From IMG/VR virus record IMGVR_UViG_2740892236_000007: 14,507 nucleotides of DNA. One strand, 5' to 3'. The position numbers and the translations under genes were made by a program. The DNA is from a virus (Duplodnaviria; Heunggongvirae; Uroviricota; Caudoviricetes). The notes below the pieces were generated by a model. That model did not search any database. It was not told the origin of the DNA and worked only from the letters and a program-made list of their open reading frames with translations. Positions 1 to 14,507 of the stretch are shown piece after piece (position 1 is the stretch's first letter; the number at the start of each line of letters is the position of its first letter).

Positions 1-71
1 ACCAAAGCATGACATCTCTGTTTCGCACCGAAGGTGACACTTCTGCTTTGCGTTGACAGGAGAAGCAGGCT

Positions 72-227
72 ATGAAGCAGCAAAAGGCGATGTTAATCGC
101 CCTGATCGTCATCTGTTTAACCGTCATAGTGACGGCACTGGTAACGAGGAAAGACCTCTGCGAGGTACGAATCCGAACCGGCCAGACGGAGGTCGCTGTC
201 TTCACAGCTTACGAACCTGAGGAGTAA
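72..227 (+). CDS. hokD: Hok-family type I toxin, 51 aa (HokD/RelF-like)
   Basis: ATG 72, TAA 225-227; translation MKQQKAMLIALIVICLTVIVTALVTRKDLCEVRIRTGQTEVAVFTAYEPEE, a hydrophobic helix plus charged tail. Below the ORF-track size cutoff, found by manual reading. A short upstream frame (MTSLFRTEGDTSALR, stop at 55-57) resembles a mok-type leader. Confidence 0.85.
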   Translation: MKQQKAMLIALIVICLTVIVTALVTRKDLCEVRIRTGQTEVAVFTAYEPEE

Positions 228-295
228 GAGACCCGGCGGGGGAGAAATCCCTCGCCACCTCTGATGTGGCAGGCATCCTCAACGCACCCGCACTT

Positions 296-320
296 AACCC
301 GCTTCGGCGGGTTTTTGTTT
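296..320 (+). terminator. Rho-independent terminator after hok-like gene
   Basis: Stem AACCCGC (296-302) / GCGGGTT (307-313) with TTCG loop, followed by a T-run. Confidence 0.6.
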
Positions 321-335
321 TTATTTTCAACGCGT

Positions 336-365
336 TTGAAGTTCTGGACGGTGCCGGAATAGAAT
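336..365 (+). promoter_or_regulatory. Candidate sigma70 promoter upstream of rem
   Basis: TTGAAG (336-341), 18-nt spacer, TAGAAT (360-365); pattern match only. Confidence 0.35.
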
Positions 366-443
366 CAAAAATACTTAAGTAGCGCGCAGGGATAAGAGGG
401 ATGGTCCCTTAAAGGGGAGAGCTAATTATCCGGAAGGATTCTG

Positions 444-695
444 ATGATGAACATCGAAGAACTGCGTAAAATTTTTTGTGAAGATGGCCTCTATGCTGTG
501 TGCGTTGAAAATGGAAATCTTGTTAGTCATTACCGCATTATGTGTTTGCGAAAGAATGGGGCTGCGTTAATTAATTTTGTGGATGCTCGGGTCACGGACG
601 GATTTATCTTGCGCGAAGGTGAGTTTGTCACTTCATTACAGGCATTGAAAGAGATCGGAATAAAAGCTGGCTTTTCTGCTTTTTCAGGAGAATAA
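444..695 (+). CDS. rem: Rem-like small prophage protein, 83 aa
   Basis: ORF with SD GGAAGGA 6 nt upstream; translation MMNIEELRKIFCEDGLYAVC... matches recalled Rem; synteny hok-rem-ydfU as in Qin-type prophages. Confidence 0.8.
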   Translation: MMNIEELRKIFCEDGLYAVCVENGNLVSHYRIMCLRKNGAALINFVDARVTDGFILREGEFVTSLQALKEIGIKAGFSAFSGE

Positions 696-761
696 ACTCA
701 TCTACAATCTTGCGCGGGGCTGAACTCCCGCTGAGTAACACCGTGCCACCGGAGAAAACCG

Positions 762-1040
762 ATGGCACGCAACGCAAAATATTACAATTCTGATAATTCG
801 CCCGTTCTTGCCTGCACGCACGGGCGGTATTCTCACGCATTCAAGTCTGAATGGTTCCAGCACCCTCCATGCACTGCAGAACAGGCCGAATGGCTGATTC
901 ATTCTTACCGCAGGCGCGGGTTCGAGGTTAAGAAAGCTCTCAGTCTCGACTATCGGCACTGGATAATCTCTGTCAGGCTGCCTTATTCCGAACGCCCACC
1001 ACGTGCGTCCCGCACTTTCCAGCAACGGATCTGGAGGTAA
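762..1040 (+). CDS. Hypothetical protein, 92 aa, translationally coupled to the downstream DUF968 gene
   Basis: SD GGAGAAAA before ATG 762; stop TAA 1038-1040 lies between SD GGAGG (1033-1037) and the GTG 1042 start of the next gene; family not recognised. Confidence 0.45.
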   Translation: MARNAKYYNSDNSPVLACTHGRYSHAFKSEWFQHPPCTAEQAEWLIHSYRRRGFEVKKALSLDYRHWIISVRLPYSERPPRASRTFQQRIWR

Positions 1041-1041
1041 C

Positions 1042-2091
1042 GTGCGGGTATTACTTAGACCTGTTCTGGTGCCTGAGCTTGGGCTGGTGGTCCTTAAGCC
1101 GGGCCGTGAATCCATACAGATATTTCATAATCCTCGAGTGCTGGTGGAACCGGAACCAAAAAGCATGCGTAATCTGCCATCCGGAGTCGTTCCTGCCGTT
1201 CGCCAGCCGCTGGCGGAAGACAAAACATTGCTGCCGTTTTTTAGTAACGAACGGGTGATTCGTGCTGCTGGCGGCGTTGGCGCATTGTCCGACTGGCTAT
1301 TACGTCATGTTACATCCTGCCAGTGGCCTAATGGCGATTACCATCACACTGAAACAGTCATTCACCGTTATGGTACCGGCGCAATGGTGTTGTGCTGGCA
1401 CTGCGACAACCAACTGCGTGACCAGACATCGGAATCACTGGAGCTGCTTGCTCAACAAAATCTGACAGCATGGGTGATTGACGTCATCCGTCACGCAATA
1501 AGCGGTACGCAGGAGCGGGAATTATCTTTGGCTGAATTATCCTGGTGGGCGGTCTGCAATCAGGTGGTGGATGCACTACCTGAGGCTGTATCGCGTCGTT
1601 CGCTGGGATTACCAGCGGAAAAAATCTGCTCGGTGTACCGCGAAAGCGACATCGTACCGGGAGAGCAGACCGCCACCAGCATATTGAAACAACGCACAAA
1701 AAATCTTGCACCGTTGCCTTACGCCCACCAGCAACAAAAATCACCACAGGAAAAGACGGTGGTAAGCATCACCGTTGATCCAGAGTCTCCGGAATCTTTC
1801 ATGAAGCTGCCTAAACGTCGCCGCTGGGTTAAGGAGAAATACACACGTTGGGTTAAGACACAGCCGTGTGCTTGCTGCGGTATGCCAGCCGACGATCCGC
1901 ATCATCTGATTGGTCACGGGCAGGGCGGAATGGGAACAAAAGCACATGATCTCTTTGTGTTGCCTTTGTGCAGAAAGCATCACAACGAGCTGCATACGGA
2001 TACAGTGGCATTTGAAGATAAGTATGGCTCCCAACTGGAGCTGATATTTCGTTTTATCGATCGCGAGCTGGCAATTGGCGTACTGGCGTAA
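1042..2091 (+). CDS. ydfU: DUF968-family protein with HNH-like Cys/His motif (YdfU-like), 349 aa from GTG
   Basis: Long ORF (track 1003..2091); preferred start GTG 1042 with SD GGAGG; C-terminal CACCG...HH...C..HHNELH motif; position between rem and Q. Confidence 0.8.
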   Translation: MRVLLRPVLVPELGLVVLKPGRESIQIFHNPRVLVEPEPKSMRNLPSGVVPAVRQPLAEDKTLLPFFSNERVIRAAGGVGALSDWLLRHVTSCQWPNGDYHHTETVIHRYGTGAMVLCWHCDNQLRDQTSESLELLAQQNLTAWVIDVIRHAISGTQERELSLAELSWWAVCNQVVDALPEAVSRRSLGLPAEKICSVYRESDIVPGEQTATSILKQRTKNLAPLPYAHQQQKSPQEKTVVSITVDPESPESFMKLPKRRRWVKEKYTRWVKTQPCACCGMPADDPHHLIGHGQGGMGTKAHDLFVLPLCRKHHNELHTDTVAFEDKYGSQLELIFRFIDRELAIGVLA

Positions 2092-2104
2092 GTGGAGAAC
2101 GAGC

Positions 2105-2857
2105 ATGAACCTTGAAGCCTTACCAAAATATTACTCCCCAAAATCTCCAAAATTGAGCGATGACGCTCCAGCGACAGGCACCGGTTGTTTAACAATTACG
2201 GATGTAATGGCAGCGCAGGGGATGGTGCAGTCGAAAGCACCACTTGGGTTGGCCTTATTTCTGGCAAAAGTTGGTGTTCAGGACCCTCAGTTTGCGATTG
2301 AAGGCCTGCTAAATTACGCGATGGCACTGGATAACCCGACATTGAACAAATTGAGTGAAGAAATCCGGTTACAGATTATTCCTTACCTCGTGAGTTTTGC
2401 CTTTGCTGATTACTCCAGGTCTGCGGCAAGTAAGGCTCGCTGTGAGCATTGTTCAGGTACGGGATTTTATAATGTATTGCGCGAAGTGGTGAAACACTAC
2501 AGACGCGGGGAATCTGTAATCAAGGAAGAATGGGTGAAGGAACTATGTCAGCATTGCCATGGTAAGGGCGAAGCCAGCACAGCGTGCAGAGGGTGTAAGG
2601 GTAAAGGGATTGTTCTGGATGAAAAAAGAACCCGGTTTCATGGCGTACCGGTATATAAGATTTGTGGGCGTTGTAATGGAAACCGGTTTAGTCGTTTACC
2701 GACCACGCTGGCACGACGTCATGTCCAGAAGCTGGTACCAGACCTGACCGATTATCAGTGGTATAAGGGGTATGCGGACGTCATTGGTAAACTGGTAACA
2801 AAGTGCTGGCAGGAAGAAGCATACGCGGAAGCGCAATTGAGGAAGGTGACGAGATAA
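2105..2857 (+). CDS. quuQ: Late-gene antitermination protein Q, 250 aa
   Basis: Repeated CxxC..G zinc-finger-like motifs (CEHCSGTG, CQHCHGKG, CRGCKGKG, CGRCNGNR); SD GGAGA before ATG 2105 (track start 2075 is an in-frame upstream ATG overlapping ydfU); followed by promoter/terminator module. Confidence 0.8.
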   Translation: MNLEALPKYYSPKSPKLSDDAPATGTGCLTITDVMAAQGMVQSKAPLGLALFLAKVGVQDPQFAIEGLLNYAMALDNPTLNKLSEEIRLQIIPYLVSFAFADYSRSAASKARCEHCSGTGFYNVLREVVKHYRRGESVIKEEWVKELCQHCHGKGEASTACRGCKGKGIVLDEKRTRFHGVPVYKICGRCNGNRFSRLPTTLARRHVQKLVPDLTDYQWYKGYADVIGKLVTKCWQEEAYAEAQLRKVTR

Positions 2858-2888
2858 ATGATTTTTGCTGAAGATGGCGACATGATGT

Positions 2889-2917
2889 TTGCATTTTTCA
2901 AAAAATATGGATAAAAT
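2889..2917 (+). promoter_or_regulatory. Candidate late promoter (PR'-like) downstream of Q
   Basis: TTGCAT (2889-2894), 17-nt spacer, TAAAAT (2912-2917), about 30 bp after the Q stop; predicted start near 2924. Confidence 0.45.
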
Positions 2918-2962
2918 TTTTTCAACGATGGGCTTTGTATACCCGACGTTAAGAAAAAGTAG

Positions 2963-2990
2963 AAAACCCGCTGATGAGCGGGTTTTGTGC
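2963..2990. terminator. Bidirectional intrinsic terminator (tR'-like on +, cspF terminator on -)
   Basis: AAAACCCGC / GCGGGTTTT stem with TGATGA loop; A-run upstream and T-run downstream so it can act on both strands. Confidence 0.6.
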
Positions 2991-3278
2991 TTTAAATGGG
3001 GCAATGGTAATGTTGAATCTCATCCCGGGACTCATGTCTGTTAACTTATTATTTAGCTGGTGACTTGGTTATTTGCCTGATGTTTAAAATGTTTTCTTCC
3101 AGTACAATGTCCCTAAACACAATGAGTCTGCTTATTATATTATTAGCAGAGCTATTACGGCCAAAGTACAGCATAAGCTTTTAAAGCCAATCAACCAGTC
3201 ATCAAGACAGACGGGGTTATTCATAAAAACTCTCCATGTGTGATCCGATGGGGCCTGAAATTAAAGCTTTAATATAGC

Positions 3279-3491
3279 TCATGAAAGGTAAACATTGGCA
3301 GCTGAAGGGCCACGCAGACCATTTATCCGGCAAAATTCCACGCGTAATCCGGTGGTAATTTCTTCTGCATCGCGGAGATTGAGCGCTGAAACATGAAGCT
3401 GGACATCGATACGACCATCGGATGGGGTGATAAGACCCTTGCCGCTTTTGCCGTCAAAGGTTTTGACAATTCCTGTCATTTTACGGGACAA
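3279..3491 (-). CDS. cspF: CspA-family cold-shock domain protein, 70 aa (CspF/CspH type)
   Basis: Translation [27 protein letters not shown]...[10 protein letters not shown]; divergent from cspB. Confidence 0.85.
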
Positions 3492-3595
3492 AAAAATTCC
3501 TTAATACTGATAACTTGGCGCACTATACACACGTTCCTGAAGAAAGCTATAGTTTTTTGATGGGGTTGAAGATGGCTGGATGTCTAAAATAAACA

Positions 3596-3624
3596 TTGCT
3601 TCATATGTTCAACTATGCGTTAAT
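3596..3624 (+). promoter_or_regulatory. Candidate cspB promoter (cspA-like)
   Basis: TTGCTT (3596-3601), 17-nt spacer, GTTAAT (3619-3624); predicts a ~160-nt 5' UTR; GCCGAAAGGC upstream-box-like element at ~3761-3770. Confidence 0.45.
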
Positions 3625-3791
3625 GATTGCGTCGGTTTGAAGAACAGACGATATACGAAGTAGTTTACTAAAGCAGTTCTCATTTCAGGTGTTATTCACT
3701 TATTCCTTCTTTGAGTCTCTCCAATTAAGTACGAAGTCGTTTCTGTTATGCAAACCATTTATGCCGAAAGGCTCAAGTTAAGGAATGTAGA

Positions 3792-4007
3792 ATGTCAAAT
3801 AAAATGACTGGTTTAGTAAAATGGTTTAACGCTGATAAAGGTTTCGGCTTTATTTCTCCTGTTGATGGTAGTAAAGATGTGTTTGTGCATTTTTCTGCGA
3901 TTCAGAATGATAATTATCGAACCTTATTTGAAGGTCAAAAGGTTACCTTCTCTATAGAGAGTGGTGCTAAAGGTCCTGCAGCAGCAAATGTCATCATTAC
4001 TGATTAA
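3792..4007 (+). CDS. cspB: Cold-shock protein CspB, 71 aa
   Basis: Translation [71 protein letters not shown] with RNP motifs. Confidence 0.95.
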
Positions 4008-4288
4008 AATTCATCGCTCGTCTGTATACGATAACGAAGAAGGCTGATGCCTGAGTAGAGATACGGACAGAGTAGTGAATATTGGATCTCTTTAATAAAA
4101 AGTAAGGAGGTCCAATACATGAAACAATGGCTAGCATATTTGGCAAAATCTTAATCAGGAAAAGTATGCTAACCATTGTGGTGAAGTGCAGGTTTGCTGC
4201 ATGAATAGTTTTACAGCAGAAGCTAACTGCTGGCATGGCAAAACAAAGTGCGTAAGTGGATGACTCCCACAAAAAGCACCACAATCTC

Positions 4289-4311
4289 AAACCCGCTCAG
4301 GCGGGTTTTTT
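4289..4311 (+). terminator. Rho-independent terminator ending the cspB transcription unit
   Basis: AAACCCGC / GCGGGTTT stem, TCAG loop, T-run. Confidence 0.6.
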
Positions 4312-4370
4312 ATTATCTGCTTTAAATATATTATTAAAATATAAAAAATACTTGTTACTAATAAAATCAA

Positions 4371-4541
4371 TCAGGCTACAGCTTTAAGATTTGTCTGGAA
4401 TACTTTGTTGCAATGAGGGCAGATCAAAAGGGCACCTTTTTGTACTCTTGAAAAACTGTGTTCTGACTCTTGGGTGCAGTTTGGGCAGGAACATTTAACG
4501 AGATAATTACGGCGTGATTTTGAGTTTTTACGTTCTGACAT
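4371..4541 (-). CDS. Small zinc-ribbon-like protein, 56 aa (two CxxC pairs)
   Basis: Preferred internal ATG 4541 with AGGAAAAG SD; MSERKNSKSRRNYLVKCSCPNCTQESEHSFSRVQKGALLICPHCNKVFQTNLKAVA; track ORF 4371..4592. Confidence 0.5.
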   Translation of the reverse strand: MSERKNSKSRRNYLVKCSCPNCTQESEHSFSRVQKGALLICPHCNKVFQTNLKAVA

Positions 4542-4760
4542 AGGCTTTTCCTGTATAAATGGCCGTATACAGTACACTAAATATGAAAACATTTCTCGTA
4601 TTATTATTTTATATATGACTTTCTTTCAAAATAATTACCCACATTTTTAATGTGTATGTTTTTTTAGCGCCGTTGAGAACAACGTGTGCTGTCAAAACTA
4701 CCCCGTAGACTCCGATCTTTTCAAACATATTGCACCATCCGTGTACATCGGGGTGAGGAT

Positions 4761-4976
4761 ATGAAATCAATGGATAAGTTAACAACAGGTGTTGCCTATG
4801 GCACATCGGCGGGTAATGCTGGTTTCTGGGCATTGCAGTTACTCGATAAAGTAACTCCGTCACAGTGGGCTGCAATCGGTGTGCTGGGTAGCCTGGTTTT
4901 TGGCCTGCTGACGTATCTGACAAATCTTTATTTCAAGATTAAAGAAGACAGGCGTAAGGCTGCGAGAGGAGAGTAA
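4761..4976 (+). CDS. essQ: Class II holin (S21-type pinholin), 71 aa, dual-start motif
   Basis: SD GAGGAT before ATG 4761; MKSMDK dual start; two hydrophobic segments and charged C-tail; closely resembles recalled phage 21 S. Track start 4686 is an upstream in-frame ATG. Confidence 0.85.
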
Positions 4977-4980
4977 TCCA

Positions 4981-5288
4981 ATGACTCAAGACTATGAACT
5001 GGTTGTGAAAGGAGTCCGTAATTTTGAGAATAAAGTTACGGTAACTGTAGCCTTACAGGACAAAGAACGCTTTGACGGTGAAATTTTTGACCTGGATGTC
5101 GCCATGGACCGTGTTGAAGGAGCTGCGCTGGAGTTTTATGAGGCAGCAGCCAGAAGGAGCGTCCGGCAAGTCTTCCTGGAAGTAGCAGAAAAATTGTCAG
5201 AAAAAGTTGAGTCTTATCTGCAGCATCAGTACTCCTTTAAGATTGAAAATCCTGCCAATAAGCACGAGCGTCCTCATCATAAATATCT

Positions 5289-5292
<4 letters not shown>
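4981..5292 (+). CDS. ydfR: DUF1327-like protein inserted between holin and endolysin, 103 aa
   Basis: ORF with SD; stop overlaps endolysin start (ATGA at 5289-5292); synteny with Qin ydfR. Confidence 0.8.
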
Positions 5293-6316
<1,024 letters not shown>

Positions 6317-6498
6317 GGTAATATTAAATCGGAACATTTACATCGCGGAATGTAAAATTTAAATAAAAAGGACTCTTCCATGAGCCAAAATTCCTGAAAT
6401 CTTAAGGGTAAGATAAAAGGTCTTAATCAGAATGACACGTTTTATTAATAAATAAAGCCATTCTTTCATTGCTGTGTTTTTCTTTACAAAAGTAATCC

Positions 6499-6527
6499 TT
6501 GCTATGGGTGGTTAATCATGCGTTAAT
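6499..6527 (+). promoter_or_regulatory. Candidate cspI promoter (same architecture as cspB)
   Basis: TTGCTA (6499-6504), 17-nt spacer, GTTAAT (6522-6527); predicts a ~145-nt 5' UTR. Confidence 0.4.
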
Positions 6528-6678
6528 GGTGTTCTGGTTTGTTACAAATTTATCTGAAGCAGTCATTGTTATAATTTTATTATTTGTACCTCTTGAGATT
6601 TCCTTGTTGGTTTTTCTCTCTGATATTTTTTTTCGGACCATTCTGCCCAAGGGCTAATTTCTTCAAAAGGTAATAATT

Positions 6679-6891
6679 ATGTCTAACAAAATGACTGGTT
6701 TAGTGAAATGGTTTAACCCTGAAAAAGGTTTTGGTTTCATCACGCCGAAAGATGGCAGCAAAGATGTGTTTGTCCATTTCTCAGCAATTCAGAGCAACGA
6801 TTTCAAAACATTAACTGAGAATCAGGAAGTTGAATTTGGTATTGAGAACGGACCTAAAGGTCCTGCCGCTGTTCATGTAGTGGCGCTTTGA
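6679..6891 (+). CDS. cspI: Cold-shock protein CspI, 70 aa
   Basis: Translation [70 protein letters not shown]. Confidence 0.95.
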
Positions 6892-7095
6892 GGTAGACAA
6901 TATTACAAACCATATTCACTTTAGATGCCCGTGTTGTCATGGTTCCCAGTATAGAACATCATCTTTTGATGTTTCTGACATGAATCCTTTCGGGGCAAAA
7001 TGTATCTTTTGTAAATCAATGATGATTACATTTGATAATATTTCACAATACTTAAATGCCAGCCGTCTGTCGTTGGATTTAAAAAAGTGAAAATG

Positions 7096-7118
7096 AAGGC
7101 TCCTTCGGGAGCTTTTTT
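7096..7118 (+). terminator. Rho-independent terminator downstream of cspI
   Basis: AAGGCTCC / GGAGCTTT stem with TTCG tetraloop and T-run. Confidence 0.6.
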
Positions 7119-7237
7119 GCTTGGTGTCTATTCGATGGATACTCACATACTACGGTAACATCATGAAAAAAATCATAGTTTTTTTTAACTCTGAACCAGC
7201 AGTGGTAGTGCCAGCGATGACTGGAGTTAACACCATC

Positions 7238-7393
7238 ATGCGTGAATATCCAAATGGCGAAAAAACACACCTTACTGTAATGGCCGCAGGGTTTCCATCT
7301 CTGACCGGAGATCATAAAGTCATTTATGTAGCCGCGGATCGACATGTTACTTCAGAAGAAATTCTGGAAGCAGCAATAAGGCTCTTGAGTTGA
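7238..7393 (+). CDS. ynfN: YnfN-like small protein, 51 aa
   Basis: MREYPNGEKTHLTVMAAGFPSLTGDHKVIYVAADRHVTSEEILEAAIRLLS; in-frame upstream ATGs at 7217 and 7163 are alternative starts. Confidence 0.65.
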   Translation: MREYPNGEKTHLTVMAAGFPSLTGDHKVIYVAADRHVTSEEILEAAIRLLS

Positions 7394-7564
7394 TTTGATG
7401 CTATTGCATTGATAATTCAGGAAAATTCTCTTTGTCTGTTTGTGTAAAATTTAGACTATCGTATGTTGATTATTGCGATGTTTCATCTTATCTTTTACAC
7501 GTTTGCACCATATAATCGACTTACTGTGTAACTGGAAAGTCATAACAGACTAAAAGAGGAAATG

Positions 7565-7738
7565 ATGAATATTGAAAACTTAAAAACAAAAGCAGAAGCA
7601 GATATTTCTGAATATATAACAAAAAAAATTATTGAACTTAAGAAAAAGACCGGGAAAGAAGTTACCAGTATTCAGTTTACCGCACGGGAAAAAATGACGG
7701 GTCTTGAAAGCTATGATGTCAAGATTAATTTAATCTGA
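7565..7738 (+). CDS. gnsB: GnsB-like small protein, 57 aa
   Basis: MNIENLKTKAEADISEYITKKIIELKKKTGKEVTSIQFTAREKMTGLESYDVKINLI; found manually (below track cutoff); an extra in-frame ATG sits at 7562. Confidence 0.8.
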   Translation: MNIENLKTKAEADISEYITKKIIELKKKTGKEVTSIQFTAREKMTGLESYDVKINLI

Positions 7739-7764
7739 TGTATTCAATAATAAAATTTATCCAT

Positions 7765-7790
7765 AAACCTCGTTTTTACGGGGTTTTGTT
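7765..7790 (+). terminator. Putative terminator after gnsB
   Basis: AAACCTCG / CGGGGTTT stem (one G-U pair) followed by TTGTT. Confidence 0.45.
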
Positions 7791-7889
7791 ATATTTGAAT
7801 GGTTCCGAATATCTAAATCACAATTGTTGATGGTTTTTATTAAACCAATGCAGTCCGGCTCAGGAGTGAGAGAAGCCGGACGTTATGGT

Positions 7890-8300
7890 TTAGCGTGGTA
7901 AGATCTGTGTAGTTTTCTGGATGCTTTCAGTAAATAGTAATGAATTATCAAAGGTATAGTAATATCTTTTTTGTTCGTGGATATTTGTAACCCACCGAAA
8001 AACTCCTGCTTTAGCAAGGTTTCTTCTGTATTCCTGAAATGTGATCTCTCTGGATTTCAGCTTATTAGAGGTCGTTTCTATAAGATGCCTATCCTTTGAA
8101 AATTTGACAGACACAATGTTTTTTAGGCCCTTTAATAACACTGTATTATCATTTTTTAATACAATATGAACATTCTCTGTGGCTAAATAGTAAATGTAAT
8201 GTGAGACATTGTGACGTTTTAGCTCAGAATAAAACCATTGATAGTTTAAATCGTTTCGAACTTTATCAAATATTTGTTTAAAAATGACTACCTGATCCAT
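7890..8300 (-). CDS. ydfO: DUF1398-family protein (YdfO/YbcV-like), 136 aa
   Basis: Preferred start is the second ATG (8300) preceded by GGAAGG; track ORF 7890..8315. Confidence 0.8.
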
Positions 8301-8357
8301 AGATAAACCTTCCATGTGATATGAGGGGGCGTAGTCTGCACGATTATCTAAATTGCT

Positions 8358-8591
8358 TCAATCTGGTCTGACCTGTTTTCTGAGCAATTCAGTAATGTCA
8401 CTCTTTTCTTTGTTTGCTTCAGAAGAAACTCTTTTTTCTGAGCACAGTCTCCGGCGGCAGGCTTCAATGACCCAGGCTGAGAAATTCCCGGACCCTTTTT
8501 GCTCAAGAGCGATGTTAATTTGTTCAATCATTTGGTTAGGAAAGCGGATGTTGCGGGTTGTTGTTCTGCGGGTTCTGTTCTTCGTTGACAT
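8358..8591 (-). CDS. ynfO: Small basic protein with RHH-like N-terminus, 77 aa (YnfO-like)
   Basis: MSTKNRTRRTTTRNIRFPNQMIEQINIALEQ... resembles Arc/CopG strand-helix; name from recalled Qin synteny only. Confidence 0.6.
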   Translation of the reverse strand: MSTKNRTRRTTTRNIRFPNQMIEQINIALEQKGSGNFSAWVIEACRRRLCSEKRVSSEANKEKSDITELLRKQVRPD

Positions 8592-8720
8592 GAGGTTGCC
8601 CCGTATTCAGTGTCGCTGATTTGTATTGTCTGAAGTTGTTTTTACGTTAAGTTGATGCAGATCAATTAATACGATACCTGCGTCATAATTGATTATTTGA
8701 CGTGGTTTGATGGCCTCCAC

Positions 8721-8976
8721 GCACGTTGTGATATGTAGATGATAATCATTATCACTTTACGGGTCCTTTCCGGTGATCCGACAGGTTACGGGGCGGCGAC
8801 CTCGCGGGTTTTCGCTATTTATGAAAATTTTCCGGTTTAANNNNNNNNNNGTAGATGCACGTTGTGACATGTAGATGATAATTATTATCATTTTGCGGGT
8901 CCTTTCCGGCGATCCGACAGGTTACGGGGCGGCGACCTCGCGGGTTTTCGCTATTTATGAAAATTTTCCGGTTTAA
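8721..8976. repeat. Two diverged direct copies (~120 bp, about 96 percent identical) of the cos-proximal sequence, separated by N10 (8841-8850)
   Basis: Copy 1 8721-8840 and copy 2 8857-8976 both contain ...CCGACAGGTTACG GGGCGGCGACCTCGCGGGTTTTCGCTATTTATGAAAATTTTCCGGTTTAA with 5 mismatches. Confidence 0.85.
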
Positions 8977-9085
8977 GGTGTTTCCGTTCTTCTTCGTCGT
9001 AACTTAATGTTTTTATTTAAAATACCCCCTGAAAAGAAAGGAAACGACAGGTGCTGAAAGCGGGCTTTTTGGCCTTTGTCGTTTC
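8927..9085 (+). other. Lambda-type cos site: cosN (GGGCGGCGACCT, 8927-8938) plus cosB with Nu1-binding-site-like repeats
   Basis: Near-identity to recalled lambda left end; GTTTCCGTTCTTCTTCG, GAAAGGAAACGACAG and TGTCGTTTCCTTTCTC repeats upstream of nu1. A second cosN copy lies at 8791-8802. Confidence 0.8.
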
Positions 9086-9115
9086 CTTTCTCTGTTTTTG
9101 TCCGTGGAATGAACA

Positions 9116-9373
9116 ATGGAAGTCAACAAAAAGCAGCTGGCTGACATTTTCGGTGCGAGTATCCGTACCATTCAGAACTGGCAGGAACAGGGAATGCCCG
9201 TTCTGCGAGGCGGTGGCAAGGGTAATGAGGTGCTTTATGACTCTGCCGCCGTCATAAAATGGTATGCCGAAAGGGATGCTGAAATTGAGAACGAAAAGCT
9301 GCGCCGGGAAGTTGAAGAACTGCGGCAGGCCAGCGAGACAGATCTCCAGCCACCCGCGCTACGGCATGGGTAA
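9116..9373 (+). pseudogene. Terminase small subunit Nu1 homolog, N-terminal ~77 codons only
   Basis: MEVNKKQLADIFGASIRTIQNWQEQGMPVLRGGGKGNEVLYDSAAVIKWYAERDAEIENEKLRREVEELRQAS matches recalled lambda Nu1 DNA-binding domain; homology ends near 9353, frame closes at 9373. Confidence 0.8.
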
Positions 9374-10603
9374 ACGTCTTGGTGCGGCAGATGTGGATAA
9401 ATGGGCGCTGTATGTCATCGGCCAGTGTTGCGACCAGTCGGTGCCGGACGGTTTTGGCGGCACGGAGCCGCGCATCACCTGTAATGCCTGGCTGACCACA
9501 CAGCGTAAGGCGTGGGATGTTCTCAGTGATTTCTGCTCGGCGATGCGCTGTATGCCGGTATGGAACGGGCAGACGCTGACGTTCGTGCAGGACCGACCAT
9601 CAGATAAGGTGTGGACCTATAACCGCAGTAATGTGGTGATGCCGGATGATGGCGCGCCGTTCCGCTACAGCTTCAGCGCCCTGAAGGACCGCCATAATGC
9701 CGTTGAGGTGAACTGGATTGACCCGGATAACGGCTGGGAGACGGCGACAGAGCTTGTGGAGGACACGCAGGCCATTGCCCGTTACGGTCGTAACGTCACG
9801 AAGATGGATGCCTTTGGCTGTACCAGGCGGGGGCAGGCGCACCGAGCCGGGCTGTGGCTGATTAAAACGGAACTGCTGGAAACGCAGACCGTGGACTTCA
9901 GCGTGGGTGCCGAAGGGCTTCGCCATGTACCAGGTGATGTCATTGAAATCTGTGATGATGACTATGCGGGGATCAGCATCGGCGGGCGCGTGCTGGCGGT
10001 GAACAGCCAGACGCGGACACTGACGCTCGACCGTGAAATCACGCTGCCATCCTCCGGCACCACGCTGATAAGCCTGGTTGACGGGCAGGGTAATCCGGTG
10101 AGCGTGGAGGTCCAGTCCGTCACCGACGGCGTGAAGGTGAAAGTGAGCCGGGTTCCTGACGGCGTTGCCGAGTACAGCGTGTGGGGGCTGAAGCTGCCGA
10201 CGCTGCGTCAGCGCCTGTTCCGCTGTGTGAGTATCCGTGAGAACGATGACGGTACGTATGCCATCACTGCCGTGCAGCATGTACCGGAGAAAGAAGCCAT
10301 CGTGGATAACGGGGCGCACTTTGACGGTGACCAGAGCGGCACGGTGAATGGTGTCACGCCGCCAGCAGTTCAGCACCTGACCGCAGAAGTCACCGCAGAC
10401 AGCGGGGAATACCAGGTGCTGGCGCGCTGGGACACGCCGAAGGTGGTGAAGGGGGTGAGCTTTATGCTTCGCCTGACCGTGGCAGCGGACGACGGCAGTG
10501 AGCGGTTGGTCAGCACGGCCCGGACGACGGAAACCACATATCGCTTCACGCAGCTGGCGCTGGGAAATTACAGGCTGACAGTCCGGGCGGTAAATGCATG
10601 GGG
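9354..10603 (+). pseudogene. Internal fragment of lambda J-like tail tip protein
   Basis: Frame-0 translation (...FRCVSIRENDDGTYAITAVQHVPEKEAIVDNGAHFDG...RAVNAWGQ) matches recalled lambda J; no N- or C-terminus; junctions at ~9353 and ~10604. Confidence 0.8.
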
Positions 10604-10906
10604 ACAGCCGGTGCACATACCCATTCGATGACATTTGTTTCAGGTGGTTCCAGTGGTGCTCCGGGAAGTGGATCACCTGATTATTCTAAATACAGTGTTA
10701 ACACTTCTTCTGCAGGCGCTCATACGCACTCTGTATCGGGTACTGCTGCAAGCGCAGGTGCACACGCATATACTGTCGGTATTGGTGCTCATACGCACTC
10801 CGTTGCGATTGGTTCACATGGACATACCATCACCGTTAACGCTGCTGGTAACGCGGAAAACACCGTCAAAAACATCGCATTTAACTATATTGTGAGGCTT
10901 GCATAA
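10604..10906 (+). pseudogene. Side tail fiber (Stf) C-terminal fragment fused to the J fragment
   Basis: GAHTHS repeats and ...[19 protein letters not shown]-terminus; stop overlaps tfa start (TAATG). Confidence 0.75.
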
Positions 10907-11486
10907 TGGCATTCAGAATGAGTGAACAACCACGGACCATAAAAATTTATAATCTGCTGGCCGGAACTAATGAATTTATTGGTGAAGGTGATGCATATAT
11001 TCCGCCTCATACAGGTCTGCCAGCAAACAGTACCGATATTGCACCGCCAGATATTCCGGCTGGCTTCGTGGCTGTTTTCAACAGTGATGAGTCATCGTGG
11101 CATCTTGTTGAAGACCATCGGGGTAAACAGTTTATGACGTGGCATCAGGGGACGCGTTATTTATTTCTGAACTCGGCTCATTACCGGAAAATGTTACCTG
11201 GTTATCCCCGGAAGGGGAGTTTCAGAAGTGGAACGGCACAGCCTGGGTGAAGGATACGGAAGCAGAAAAACTGTTCCGGATCCGGGAGGTGGAAGAAACA
11301 AAAAACAGCCTGATGCAGGTAGCCAGTGAGCATATAGCGCCGCTTCAGGATGCTGTGGATCTGGAAATCGCAACGGAGGAAGAAACCTTGTTGCTGGAAG
11401 CCTGGAAAAAGTATCGGGTATTGCTGAACCGTGTTGATACGTCAACTGCACAGGATATTGAATGGCCAGTAGCACCTATAGGGTAA
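10906..11486 (+). pseudogene. Tail fiber assembly protein Tfa, disrupted by a 1-nt frameshift near 11128
   Basis: N-terminal part in one frame (10906..11250), C-terminal part [17 protein letters not shown]... in another frame (to 11486). Confidence 0.75.
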
Positions 11487-11570
11487 ATTCGTAATGATTA
11501 CCTAAATACGTTATTCTTTTGTTCAAAAAGTGATTTTGCTATAGATAGGGAGTATGTTCTTGGATTAAGA

Positions 11571-11601
11571 ATAAAAATCGCCATGAAAGAGCTTCATGGC
11601 G
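11571..11601 (-). terminator. Intrinsic-terminator-like hairpin oriented for minus-strand transcripts
   Basis: Perfect 9-bp stem CGCCATGAA / TTCATGGCG with 5-nt loop; on the minus strand it is followed by ATTTTTAT. Confidence 0.4.
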
Positions 11602-12344
11602 AGTACATAAACGTACAAAATGTGATGAAAGTAGAGTGGCGTAAGCCACTATATTAAGATGTGACAATAGCGAAGAAAAGTAAATAACATTTTATGGACG
11701 TTTAATTGTTAATTATAAAAACTAGAGTGCCCGATATTGTTTACCTTGCTTTAAAATAATGTACTCAAACCAAATTTTTGAGCTAAAAGCTCAAATAATA
11801 TAAATGCAATAATAATGTTTAATAAGACAATTAGCTTGCTTTGTATTTTCATTTCGGAATACTGTTAAGTAACTTTGATGACCCTAACAATAGATCGGAA
11901 TTTTCTTAGAGTCAATGGTCACTGTTTTTGCTTGCAAAGCAAATGTTTTGGTGGTTATAAGTTGTCTTAATATAGTCACGCATGCAACTTGTTCCATGCG
12001 GAGATTAAAGATTGGAATATAACGCTAAGATGGAATTAAATTACATTTGCAATAATCAATTTATTATTACTCAATAATTACCGATATTATTATTGTAAAT
12101 TAATCATTAGAGTGCAAAAAGAAATGTAACGGCAAAATAAGAGGACGATAGCTGAGAAAAAAGCGTGCTTTCCCAATCTGGGGCAAATCACGTCTGAATG
12201 ACACCTGAAAACAGGTGGTAGCCTCAAGAAGGCTTGGAATATTCTTCTTTAATGTTATGTAATTCATTGATTTTTCGTGTACGATTTAAAGACATTTATT
12301 CCAAGAAAAATTTTTAACTCTTTGATTTTTCGACTCTGTATCAT

Positions 12345-12406
12345 CGGTCTCGAAAACCGGAGTAGGGGCAACTCTACCGGGGGTTCAAATCCCCCTCTCT
12401 CCGCCA
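12345..12406 (+). tRNA. serU: 3' fragment (~62 nt) of tRNA-Ser(CGA): anticodon arm, long variable arm, T-arm, acceptor 3' strand, CCA; not a complete tRNA
   Basis: CGGTCTCGAAAACCGGAGTAGGGGCAACTCTACCGGGGGTTCAAATCCCCCTCTCTCCGCCA matches the recalled 3' portion of E. coli serU; no 5' half is present upstream. Confidence 0.8.
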
Positions 12407-12990
12407 CTTTATCAATGACTTATCTCCCGACTTCCCGCCTTGCTTTTCCTAAACAGAACAATCGTAGAATATTCTTGAAGGGTTAGATCGTCACTGTTTT
12501 CTGTTCGATACTGTGACATTCAGCACTTGATTCGCTATGGATCTGACAGGAAGGTTTTGAGCGAAAATTTGCAGTTATTCAGTCGTTTTCTTATCGGTCA
12601 CCATTATTCTTTTAGACATTGATCCTACAAAGCTGCCGCAAAGTTGGTGGTGGGAACTGAAGTTGCGTAGAGAAGGGGTCAATACCCGGAGGCAAACATG
12701 GGCTGGCAAAAGTGTAGCGGTATTAGGCGCAGCTATTTAGCCTAGTTATGTTTTATGAAAACTTGATATCATATAAGTGTCTTACTTATTGGCTGTAAAT
12801 AAGTTTTTCCTAAGGAATTGTTTCTTGAGTATCATTTGTAACTGTAACGGAATTTATAATCCTTTGCTTTATTGTTACGGTATTTTTTATCACACCCTAT
12901 TTTTTATATGGTTTTTTATACTGAAGTTTGGCAAAGTGAACTTTATATGCATATACTTCATCCTGGTTTCAGTTAAGTTGGGTGGATGAT

Positions 12991-13734
12991 ATGGCAACTA
13001 CATGTTCAGTTATATTGATTTTGGAGTCCTTTGATGTTTATTTCGGAAAAGAGAGTGTGTTTCTGGAGAGAGGTTCATCTGTACTTGTCGACTCTAGCTC
13101 TAGAGATTTTTTCCTGACATATCCTGAAAGAGTGATAGTGGCGGATTTTGGCGCTGAGTTTATTAGTCGCTATTTGAAAGCTAATAACTTAAGGGATATT
13201 TCTGATTGTAGGGAATATCCATCTTATTTAAAAATAAACTTTGCTGACTTCAGTTTAATTAAAGGATTAATTAGTTGGGCTAATCACTGTGCTGAATACA
13301 TAGAAATTTTTGATGAGTCTATTGCTTTTACATGTCTCTCTGCATTTTCTTCTGAAAAACAATTTGGAGTATTTCTGTTTGAATGTTTGAAAAGCACAGG
13401 GGCTAAAGTTAAAACGATTATTCATACGGATTTATCTGCACCATGGCGTCTTAAGGATATATCATCAAGATTATATCTCAGCGAAAGTTTACTAAAGAGG
13501 AAATTGAAAGAAGAGGGGGTATCATTCAGTAAGATCATACTTGATGAGAGGATGCAAATGGCTGAATATTTACTCAGCACTCGTTGTTATCCTATTAGTA
13601 AAGTAGCTAAGGTCTGTGGTTATGCCAGTGTCTCATACTTTACTTATGTATTTAGACGTTATTTTGGTGTTTCTCCAAGTCAATACTCTCAGAGCAGTTC
13701 AGAAAGTAAAATTCTTACTCACCAGGGAATCTGA
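12991..13734 (+). CDS. AraC/XylS-family transcriptional regulator, AppY/YdeO/GadX-like, 247 aa
   Basis: C-terminal double HTH (WRLKDISSRLYLSESLLKRKLKEEG...CGYASVSYFTYVFRRYFGVSPSQY); N-terminus resembles AppY/YdeO; AT-rich gene; track ORF begins at GTG 12982. Confidence 0.85.
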   Translation: MATTCSVILILESFDVYFGKESVFLERGSSVLVDSSSRDFFLTYPERVIVADFGAEFISRYLKANNLRDISDCREYPSYLKINFADFSLIKGLISWANHCAEYIEIFDESIAFTCLSAFSSEKQFGVFLFECLKSTGAKVKTIIHTDLSAPWRLKDISSRLYLSESLLKRKLKEEGVSFSKIILDERMQMAEYLLSTRCYPISKVAKVCGYASVSYFTYVFRRYFGVSPSQYSQSSSESKILTHQGI

Positions 13735-13740
13735 TCATTG

Positions 13741-14243
13741 TTCTTGCCCCCTTATTTCCAGACAGGGGGTGTATCTTAAGTTAACGTTACCCGCTGACGT
13801 CGATATTCTCGCGGAGAGCGATAACCCAACGCACTGTGCGGATGGTTTTCATTGTAATGTTCGATCGCCACTGCAAGATTATGCAATGCCGTTCTTACAT
13901 TCGGTTTCGGCATGAACGCGATGTAGTCTTCCTTCATCGTTTTCACGAACCTTTCTGCCATTCCATTACTCTGAGGACTGCTGATTGCCGTTGTGCAGGG
14001 CTCCAGATTCAACTCTCTGGCGAACTGCCATGTTTCATGCGCTCTATACGCTGAACCGTTATCTGTCAGCCACTGGATGGACTGTTCCGGTACTTTATCG
14101 CCAAAGCGTTTTTCTATCGCTCCTAACATGACATCCTGCACTGTCGCTTTATCGTAACCTCCCGTGCTTGCGGCCCAGTCTATGGCTTCACGATCGCAAC
14201 AGTCCAGGGCGAACGTAACACGCAGTTTTGAATCGCCACGGGT
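13741..14243 (-). mobile_element. IS3-family (IS2-group-like) remnant: terminal inverted repeat plus transposase OrfB C-terminal half (~155 codons)
   Basis: Minus-strand frame 13776..14243 (...[24 protein letters not shown]...[13 protein letters not shown]...[14 protein letters not shown]) resembles the recalled IS2 InsD C-terminal half; 13741-13765 resembles the recalled IS2 terminal repeat; N-terminal half absent. Confidence 0.75.
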
Positions 14244-14291
14244 TTAACAGACACCTCAGAGTCATTTAAGATGGCTTAAAGAGAGGTGCCC

Positions 14292-14507
14292 ATGAGCGGT
14301 AAGCGTTATCCCGAAGAGTTTAAAACTGAAGCAGTCAAACAGGTTGTTGATCGCGGTTATTCTGTTGCCAGCGTTGCAACACGTCTCGATATCACCACCC
14401 ACAGCCTTTATGCCTGGATAAAGAAGTACGGTCCGGATTACTCCACTTTTTCATCAAGCCAATCCGCCCACCACTGCATCATTTCTCTGCGCTTATCGAG
14501 ATACTGA
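14292..14507 (+). mobile_element. IS3-family OrfA-like N-terminal fragment (HTH), second IS in opposite orientation
   Basis: MSGKRYPEEFKTEAVKQVVDRGYSVASVATRLDITTHSLYAWIKKYGPD fits the IS3-family OrfA N-terminal pattern; downstream part diverges and the window ends at 14507. Confidence 0.6.

Follow-up and report, generated by a model that had tools for sequence, protein, structure and literature searches.

Williams is said to have distinguished, in a classification from 2002, an anticodon-loop class of tRNA integration sites, in which the identity block opens within the 5′ anticodon-stem strand and extends to the 3′ end of the tRNA; this is also so at the locus described here, where the original integration would not depart from the class. 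In phage lambda the arm-type sites of attP are P1 and P2 and P′1 to P′3, and in lambda bio-type transducing phages imprecise excision makes attR and the host DNA next to it part of the phage genome, where they come to lie between b-region and early genes; a phage arm, a hybrid att site and contiguous host DNA following each other in a phage genome are the signature of such an excision.

With respect to serU, prophages integrated at this gene are found in the strains LR14 and AR_0118, where gpJ, lom, stf and tfa are followed by about 860 bp, a 62-nt partial tRNA-Ser, the flank and yodB-zinT-msrQP. At the opposite end of the LR14 prophage the order is mtfA, intact serU, a tyrosine integrase gene and a small DUF4224 gene; this prophage is lambdoid, measures 40.3 kb between its ends, and has exactly the 62 nt as its sole long direct repeat. 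Since GenBank KU052038 ('phage SerU-LTIIb') annotates a 62-nt pseudo-tRNA-Ser beside yodB, this form of a true attR is already known. A further point of comparison is prophage DLP12 of K-12, in which an AraC-family regulator gene (appY) lies between a tail-fibre assembly gene and the right end of the prophage, as does the regulator gene described below.

In the window, i.e., the whole stretch of 14,507 nt that was analysed (IMG/VR record IMGVR_UViG_2740892236_000007), positions 12345-12406 (+) read CGGTCTCGAAAACCGGAGTAGGGGCAACTCTACCGGGGGTTCAAATCCCCCTCTCTCCGCCA, beginning with CGGTCTCGAAAACCGG and ending with CTCTCCGCCA. By alignment as well as by exact-pattern search, all 62 of these nucleotides are identical to nucleotides 29-90 of serU of E. 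coli K-12 (tRNA-Ser, anticodon CGA; NC_000913 2043468-2043557), a match that cannot be due to chance. In terms of tRNA structure, the fragment begins at base two of the anticodon stem's 5′ strand, comprises the anticodon loop, a long variable arm, T arm and 3′ acceptor strand, and ends with CCA, so that the preliminary description, which had recognised here the 3′ part of a tRNA-Ser(CGA) without its 5′ half and had proposed a comparison with an intact serU, was correct on this point. The 5′ 28 nt of serU are missing from the window and have been replaced by DNA that is unrelated to serU in alignments. In line with this, no complete tRNA is present: ARAGORN reported 0 tRNA genes in the whole window, Rfam made no tRNA call in the window at its gathering threshold and none on 12250-12500 at E ≤ 1, and the fragment does not have the complete cloverleaf, with acceptor 5′ strand and D arm, of a functional tRNA-Ser gene. 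Nor is it recognisable as a terminator or promoter, with no terminator-like site on its + strand and promoter-like matches at background level.

The antisense of the fragment, at 12352-12403 (-), matches the Rfam family RF04351 ('Plastid-psbl-rps4 3′UTR') with 40.9 bits and E = 1e-7, i.e., below the gathering threshold; this plastid family appears to model the complement of the 3′ half of tRNA-Ser.

The homology to serU continues past the CCA for another 278 bp, which the preliminary description had overlooked, and the 340 bp from 12345 to 12684 (serU nucleotides 29-90 and 278 bp towards yodB) are 97.4% identical to the serU locus of K-12. It ends sharply at 12684, where the window reads ...TCAATA followed by CCCGGAGG and K-12 reads ...TCAATA followed by ATTGAG. 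Beyond this point lie a gene for an AraC-family regulator and remnants of IS3-family transposase genes; the serU 3′ piece, the 278-bp flank, the AraC gene and the IS3 remnant will be referred to as the module, which was found in about 490-520 genomes (524 with the chimeric query described below), or about 10% of the complete E. coli genomes. The features around the fragment are the following:

10906-11487 (+): tfa (tail fibre assembly), annotated in the NCTC9041 locus (L001), in L011 and in phage ev099; the last phage structural gene left of the relic.
11488-12149 (no strand assigned): distal phage DNA from tfa to the att arm, common to serU prophages of the LR14/AR_0118 type.
12100-12267 (-): small ORF that starts in the distal phage DNA and extends into the P arm; 'hypothetical' in ev099 and without a match to any NCBIfam family.
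12150-12344 (+): P arm of a serU-specific attP, about 195 bp kept among different serU-integrating prophages.
12233-12241 (+): putative integrase arm-type site CTTGGAATA, direct copy, -112 from the core.
12297-12305 (-): putative integrase arm-type site CTTGGAATA, inverted copy, -48 from the core, from a k-mer analysis of the rebuilt attP.
12345-12406 (+): 62-nt identity block (core), equal to serU nucleotides 29-90.
12407-12684 (+): 278 bp of chromosomal DNA native 3′ of serU (B′ side of attR and captured host flank).
12685-12990 (+): novel joint and AraC upstream region, found only in module-bearing genomes.
12991-13734 (+): AraC-family regulator gene (247 aa; YdeO/GadX/AppY-like).
13776-14507 (no strand assigned): remnants of IS3-family transposase genes at the end of the module, as annotated in L001 and L011 and as seen from matches to IS3/ISEc48.

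The left arm, the 62 nt and the flank (window 11700-12684) can be found in 220 of 5,426 complete E. coli genomes at a coverage of at least 80%. The attR of LR14 and AR_0118 agrees with the window in its left arm, in the 62-nt partial tRNA-Ser and in the initial 278 bp of flank, and KU052038 has the same 62 nt; over 10715-12684 the window is 97.2% identical to LR14 (L009 47357-49328), and only 3 of 260 positions differ between the window and the LR14 attR arm. The two repeat copies of LR14 (attL, L009 8714-8775; attR, 48989-49050) differ from each other at two positions, which form a compensatory pair in the variable arm. While the phage-supplied attL copy inside the intact tRNA reads GTGGGGGCAACTCCAC, with G-C instead of A-T, the displaced attR copy reads GTAGGGGCAACTCTAC, as do native K-12 and the window. 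As the fragment thus carries the native chromosomal variable arm, GTAGGGGCAACTCTAC, just as at attR, it is the displaced chromosomal 3′ end of serU and not a phage attP copy.

This bears on the idea that the fragment might be the attP of the resident phage, i.e., a copy of the tRNA 3′ end that restores serU upon integration. Copies of this kind are indeed present in the attP of phages that target tRNA genes, and the fragment does occur in phage genome records (see below); however, apart from its variable arm not being of the phage type, it is followed by 278 bp of host flank where a P′ arm and int would be expected, it lacks the three putative arm-type sites that the P′ arm has in tandem, and the adjacent functional module consists of a lambda attP and a lambda-type int, which makes this explanation highly improbable.

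In LR14 itself, the phage-supplied 3′ part at attL differs from the native one by the compensatory pair, and lysogens therefore express a chimeric tRNA-Ser(CGA).

When the attP was rebuilt from the LR14 attR and attL, two copies of the 9-mer CTTGGAATA were found in the P arm and a tandem array of three beside int in the LR14 P′ arm, and the 10-mer CTTGGAATAT occurs once in the window as compared to an expected 0.06. Judged from these motifs, the layout of the putative arm-type sites would resemble that of P1/P2 and P′1-P′3 in lambda. Because the left arms of other serU prophages agree with that of the window only from position 12150 (E. coli 042 class) or 12294 (O157:H7 class) onward, the P arm can be delimited to about 195 bp. 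With a partial tRNA 3′ copy identical to the 3′ part of the intact gene, and with a phage-side arm whose putative arm-type sites recur in the int-side P′ arm, the fragment is a genuine serU attR by descent. The far flank is native for 278 bp only and does not continue into the native neighbours, and an intact tRNA and a cognate integrase gene at the other end of one contiguous element are found in LR14 only and not here. In contrast to the attR of serU prophages, whose flank reaches yodB, the flank in the window breaks off after 278 bp, where AraC and IS3 remnants are joined to it; and while a serU prophage is contiguous with intact serU and integrase at its other end (as seen in LR14), the prophage of the window sits at another site.

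The continuation of the junction into the AraC region (window 11900-12900) is present in only 89 complete genomes, and the ybhB neighbourhood was checked individually in 10 of these 89. In all ten, the block resides just inside the attR of a cryptic lambdoid prophage at ybhC/ybhB. The cryptic prophage that contains it in NCTC9041 and 23CRST021 resembles DLP12 and occupies the lambda attachment site; its left end consists of ybhC, the lambda core GCTTTTTTATACTAA and int-xis, leading to nohD, tail remnants and tfa, and the right end of the 62 nt with the flank, AraC, the IS3 remnants, the lambda core with one mismatch, and ybhB-bioA (cores in NCTC9041 at L001 2555-2569 and 22833-22847). In eight further genomes, among the 100%-coverage matches listed, tfa, the module and ybhB form one 100%-identical piece; these matches were used because a long query with an 80% threshold let in other arrangements as well (160 genomes). 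As the window stops 225 bp before the expected lambda attR core, which together with ybhB lies about 225 bp beyond the position of the window's end in the complete genomes, its own chromosomal location is taken from these near-identical genomes; over 10903-14507 only two positions differ from the att-lambda prophage of 23CRST021. The real serU of this strain is intact and unoccupied (mtfA, tRNA-Ser at 1,820,445-1,820,534, yodB) and lies 1.22 Mb from the relic.

The same block can also be found in phages, with window 11500-13800 being 99.2-99.4% identical to the phage records ev099, mEp332 and PhiR70_1. In ev099 the order is stf-tfa, the serU 62 nt, AraC, IS3 remnants, the lambda attP core, int and xis, so that 2.3 kb separate the junction from the lambda attP core and int downstream; the integrase of ev099 is 99.7% identical to that of NCTC9041 and only 23% to the serU integrase of LR14. 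The block thus lies where b-region cargo (a moron) is expected, i.e., between the tail-fibre genes and attP/int in ev099 and inside the prophage att repeats in NCTC9041 and H10407. Taken together, the att-lambda prophage setting, the phage records and the empty serU show that the fragment, the P arm and 278 bp of host DNA are carried as b-region cargo of lambda-type phages.

The preliminary description had proposed that the fragment marks the distal boundary of an island at serU, with the intact tRNA outside the window. In form the junction is indeed a bona fide serU attR, which bounds the serU prophages of LR14 and AR_0118, and no other att site is reached before the window ends. Yet after 12684 AraC and IS3 remnants take the place of further host flank and yodB, the stretch 10903-14507 has its near-identical counterpart in an att-lambda prophage of a strain with an empty serU, and in none of the ten inspected genomes is the block bounded by anything but the lambda att core and ybhC/ybhB. 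In addition, a chimeric query consisting of K-12 upstream sequence, intact serU and flank joined to the AraC upstream region did not reveal an intact serU joined to the AraC block in any of the 524 module-bearing genomes among 5,426 E. coli genomes. A live attR of an element now integrated at serU is therefore largely refuted already and retains very little probability. Accordingly, the proposed integration scar holds for the kind of structure, i.e., a partial tRNA copy of the tyrosine-integrase type that is a true attR in LR14 and AR_0118, and not for its present role; and of the integrase and intact serU that were to be sought in one element, LR14 has both and the window neither. On the whole the earlier reading is partly supported, the observation having been confirmed and the type of scar rightly named, while what it bounds now was misjudged. 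The fragment is a relocated and apparently inert attR fossil in a cryptic descendant of an att-lambda phage and not the boundary of the resident element.

As the best explanation, to which we would assign a probability of about 0.85, the fragment is a relic attR of a serU phage that was captured with its host flank and is now b-region cargo of att-lambda phages. In this course of events, a lambdoid phage with a serU-specific tyrosine integrase would have entered serU by a crossover at the anticodon stem-loop. The resulting junction would have comprised phage tfa, the P arm with its putative arm-type sites, the displaced native 62-nt 3′ end of serU and the downstream host DNA, and might later have been taken into phage DNA together with 278 bp of host flank. 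Imprecise excision of the lambda bio type or inter-prophage recombination would be the most likely route of capture, with IS3-mediated recombination, or homologous recombination between prophages, as alternative routes. The attP/int module may then have been swapped for a lambda-type integrase of different specificity; the junction now travels fused to the AraC gene and the IS3 remnants, between tfa and attP of lambda-like phages. Both the capture route and this order of events are what we infer from the present arrangement. The cognate integrase and the attL partner are absent beside the relic.

In favour of imprecise excision, a hybrid att site contiguous with host DNA is present within the phage genomes ev099, mEp332 and PhiR70_1. 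As in lambda bio-type phages, tail genes, a hybrid attR and contiguous host DNA follow each other in this order, with the cognate integrase likewise missing alongside; in contrast to those phages, the event here is ancient and fixed, an attP/int of new specificity follows, AraC and IS3 remnants are found at the joint, and the excision itself is presumed. An ancestral arrangement of intact serU, flank and AraC was found in none of the 5,426 E. coli genomes, and a search for a close AraC relative beside serU in representative genomes of other species, by a method that reaches close relatives only, returned only spurious Paenibacillus matches with 24% identity. With no such ancestral locus in E. 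coli and no close relative elsewhere, the AraC gene may not be derived from the host. A further point against the preferred explanation of a captured attR relic is that two unrelated P arms on the same module (see below) require an extra event.

The AraC protein (247 aa) is most similar to YdeO and GadX, below the family cutoffs (148.7 bits for the NCBIfam YdeO family), and is a distant relative of AppY with 29% identity; its protein cluster, with 1788 members, bears just the name 'AraC family', and its public names are generic. The best promoter-like site in its upstream region lies at 12928-12957. PatE is a prophage-encoded, AraC-like activator of acid resistance (z0321) located on O-island 8 of EDL933 (PMC10877973). 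In the O157:H7 strain TR01 the module is found at about 313 kb, and since position and family agree, the gene at 12991-13734 is probably PatE. K-12 DLP12 was considered as a source and rejected, as its tfaX-appY gap is devoid of a serU fragment and AppY is only 29% identical; the regulator of the window is a different gene from appY, probably PatE.

All 524 matches to the module start inside the tRNA, at serU nucleotide 20, 25 or 29, which corresponds to fragments of 71, 66 and 62 nt, respectively, with two unrelated arms joined within 4-9 nt in the anticodon stem. Most copies have the other left arm, which carries a LEM-3-like GIY-YIG gene and pinE and stems from a phage with a contractile Mu-like tail; in these copies the identity to serU reaches 4-9 nt further than in the window. 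In ETEC H10407 (L006), thrW is the site of a prophage with the GIY-YIG arm, whose own integrase gene adjoins the intact tRNA-Thr; the module is located immediately inside attR, and a 52-nt thrW repeat is found at 8343-8394 and 48130-48181. MB06233 has the GIY-YIG arm with the full module at att-lambda, and in MB15 and RMDEC332 this arm is a true attR arm at the real serU. One and the same module, found at att-lambda and at thrW, is therefore joined to either of two authentic serU attR arms, and the phages that carry it have at least two further integration specificities.

Directly after the thrW attR of H10407 (L006 48130-48181) the next tyrosine integrase gene follows at 48341, which indicates that thrW is occupied in tandem in this strain.

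The two arms raise the question whether the relic is still a working site, at which the serU-type Int of a phage that infects the cell or already resides in it, alone or together with Xis, swaps arms or rearranges the chromosome; this would be compatible with the preferred explanation of a captured attR relic and would add present-day activity to it. In support, two unrelated P arms meet one module within 4-9 nt (the 62-, 66- and 71-nt fragments), both arms are also true attR arms at the real serU, MB06233 has the other arm at att-lambda, and the core and putative arm-type sites are intact. However, homologous recombination within the 340 bp shared with a real serU attR explains the arm swaps equally well, and the cognate integrase was not found nearby. 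The flank of the window has the SNP haplotype of the module from 12554 on, and not that of the real serU attR, and 12345-12553 holds no informative SNP by which the crossover of the arm swap could be placed; the exchange therefore occurred at the core, i.e., site-specifically, or by a homologous crossover in the first ~200 bp, and both fit alike. That homologous exchange with the real serU flank occurs follows from Z1322 (L013, Z1322HEC0009), in which a native, K-12-type flank haplotype extends up to 12632 with the AraC continuation being kept, which indicates that the relic and the flank of the real serU have undergone gene conversion. A still active site thus appears rather unlikely.

It is similarly doubtful whether the relic, with its complete P arm and core, serves as a decoy or secondary site for serU-type integrases that docks serU phages onto the PatE-like AraC module. 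If so, the module could be carried between phage lineages and between the sites att-lambda, thrW and serU, and rearrangements on the megabase scale would be possible when a serU prophage is co-resident; a live relic would also account for the two arms, for which, as outlined, homologous recombination offers an equally good explanation.

A 66-nt serU piece with the AraC module is also found at 28146-29103 of NZ_CP146678.1, a 64-kb 'plasmid' record of E. coli MS 69-1, the chromosome of which carries a module too. Such a record might stem from a phage genome that was excised or circular, or from a phage-plasmid.

While the fragment is an ordinary feature of a known kind, its history is unusually legible. 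A tRNA 3′ fragment beside phage tail genes need neither mark the edge of the resident element nor point to the locus of the tRNA, and the relic is a built-in false positive for callers of island or prophage boundaries that make use of tRNA direct repeats. In turn, it is a clean and datable trace of how a regulator gene, probably that of the EHEC acid-resistance activator PatE, came to ride in temperate phages, in a module that has 340 bp of serU-locus DNA attached to it and is disseminated by phages whose integrases are of at least two unrelated kinds.

The window as a whole is a mosaic. Positions 1-11469 are 99.7% identical to the Qin prophage (hokD ... cspF, cspB, rrrQ, cspI ... tfaQ) of strains such as 23CRST021, where the counterpart of 11900-12900 is part of the att-lambda prophage, a separate element that lies at a distance of about 0.8 Mb in opposite orientation. 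The window follows Qin up to 10825 and the att-lambda copy from 10903, and the switch falls in an identical stretch of about 77 bp (10826-10902) at the start of tfa, the Qin and att-lambda copies of which are about 94% identical. A join of Qin to att-lambda was found in none of the complete genomes; it is either a real recombinant between prophages, which would imply an inversion of about 0.8 Mb, or an assembly chimera. The ends of the contigs on both sides of the 10-N gap at 8841-8850 (8715-8840 and 8851-8976) overlap by about 126 bp on reference loci, with 8429-8840 mapping to L001 15688-16099 and 8851-9352 to 15974-16475; therefore the gap represents a scaffolding join typical of k=127 assemblies and not missing sequence. 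From this it might be suspected that the junction of the fragment is itself an artefact of the draft genome, the more so as the whole window matches no complete genome over at least 80% of its length. Yet the stretch that contains the fragment's junctions (11700-14507) is unbroken in each of 89 complete genomes as well as in three phage genome records; only the join of Qin to tfa at 10826-10902 is unsupported elsewhere. For the fragment itself, an artefact has thus already been refuted and can be regarded as most improbable; the Qin join and the N gap are without effect on its own junctions, so that the gap does not have the relevance that it had been given at the outset.

Relative to the att-lambda prophage of 23CRST021, tfa is frameshifted in the window by a 1-nt deletion at 11124, which splits it into the ORFs 10906-11250 and 11139-11486 and is either the mark of a pseudogene or a sequencing error. 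An Rfam match to IS009 (218 bits) at 11248-11446 lies wholly within the 3′ half of the tfa coding sequence and corresponds to tfaD/tfaX of K-12 DLP12; this 'sRNA' family may simply model a conserved coding fragment. In the Qin part of the window cspF is located at 3279-3491 (-), and the cspA-thermoregulator matches of Rfam at 3631-4023 and 6533-6918 are the 5′ leaders and coding regions of the Qin genes cspB and cspI.
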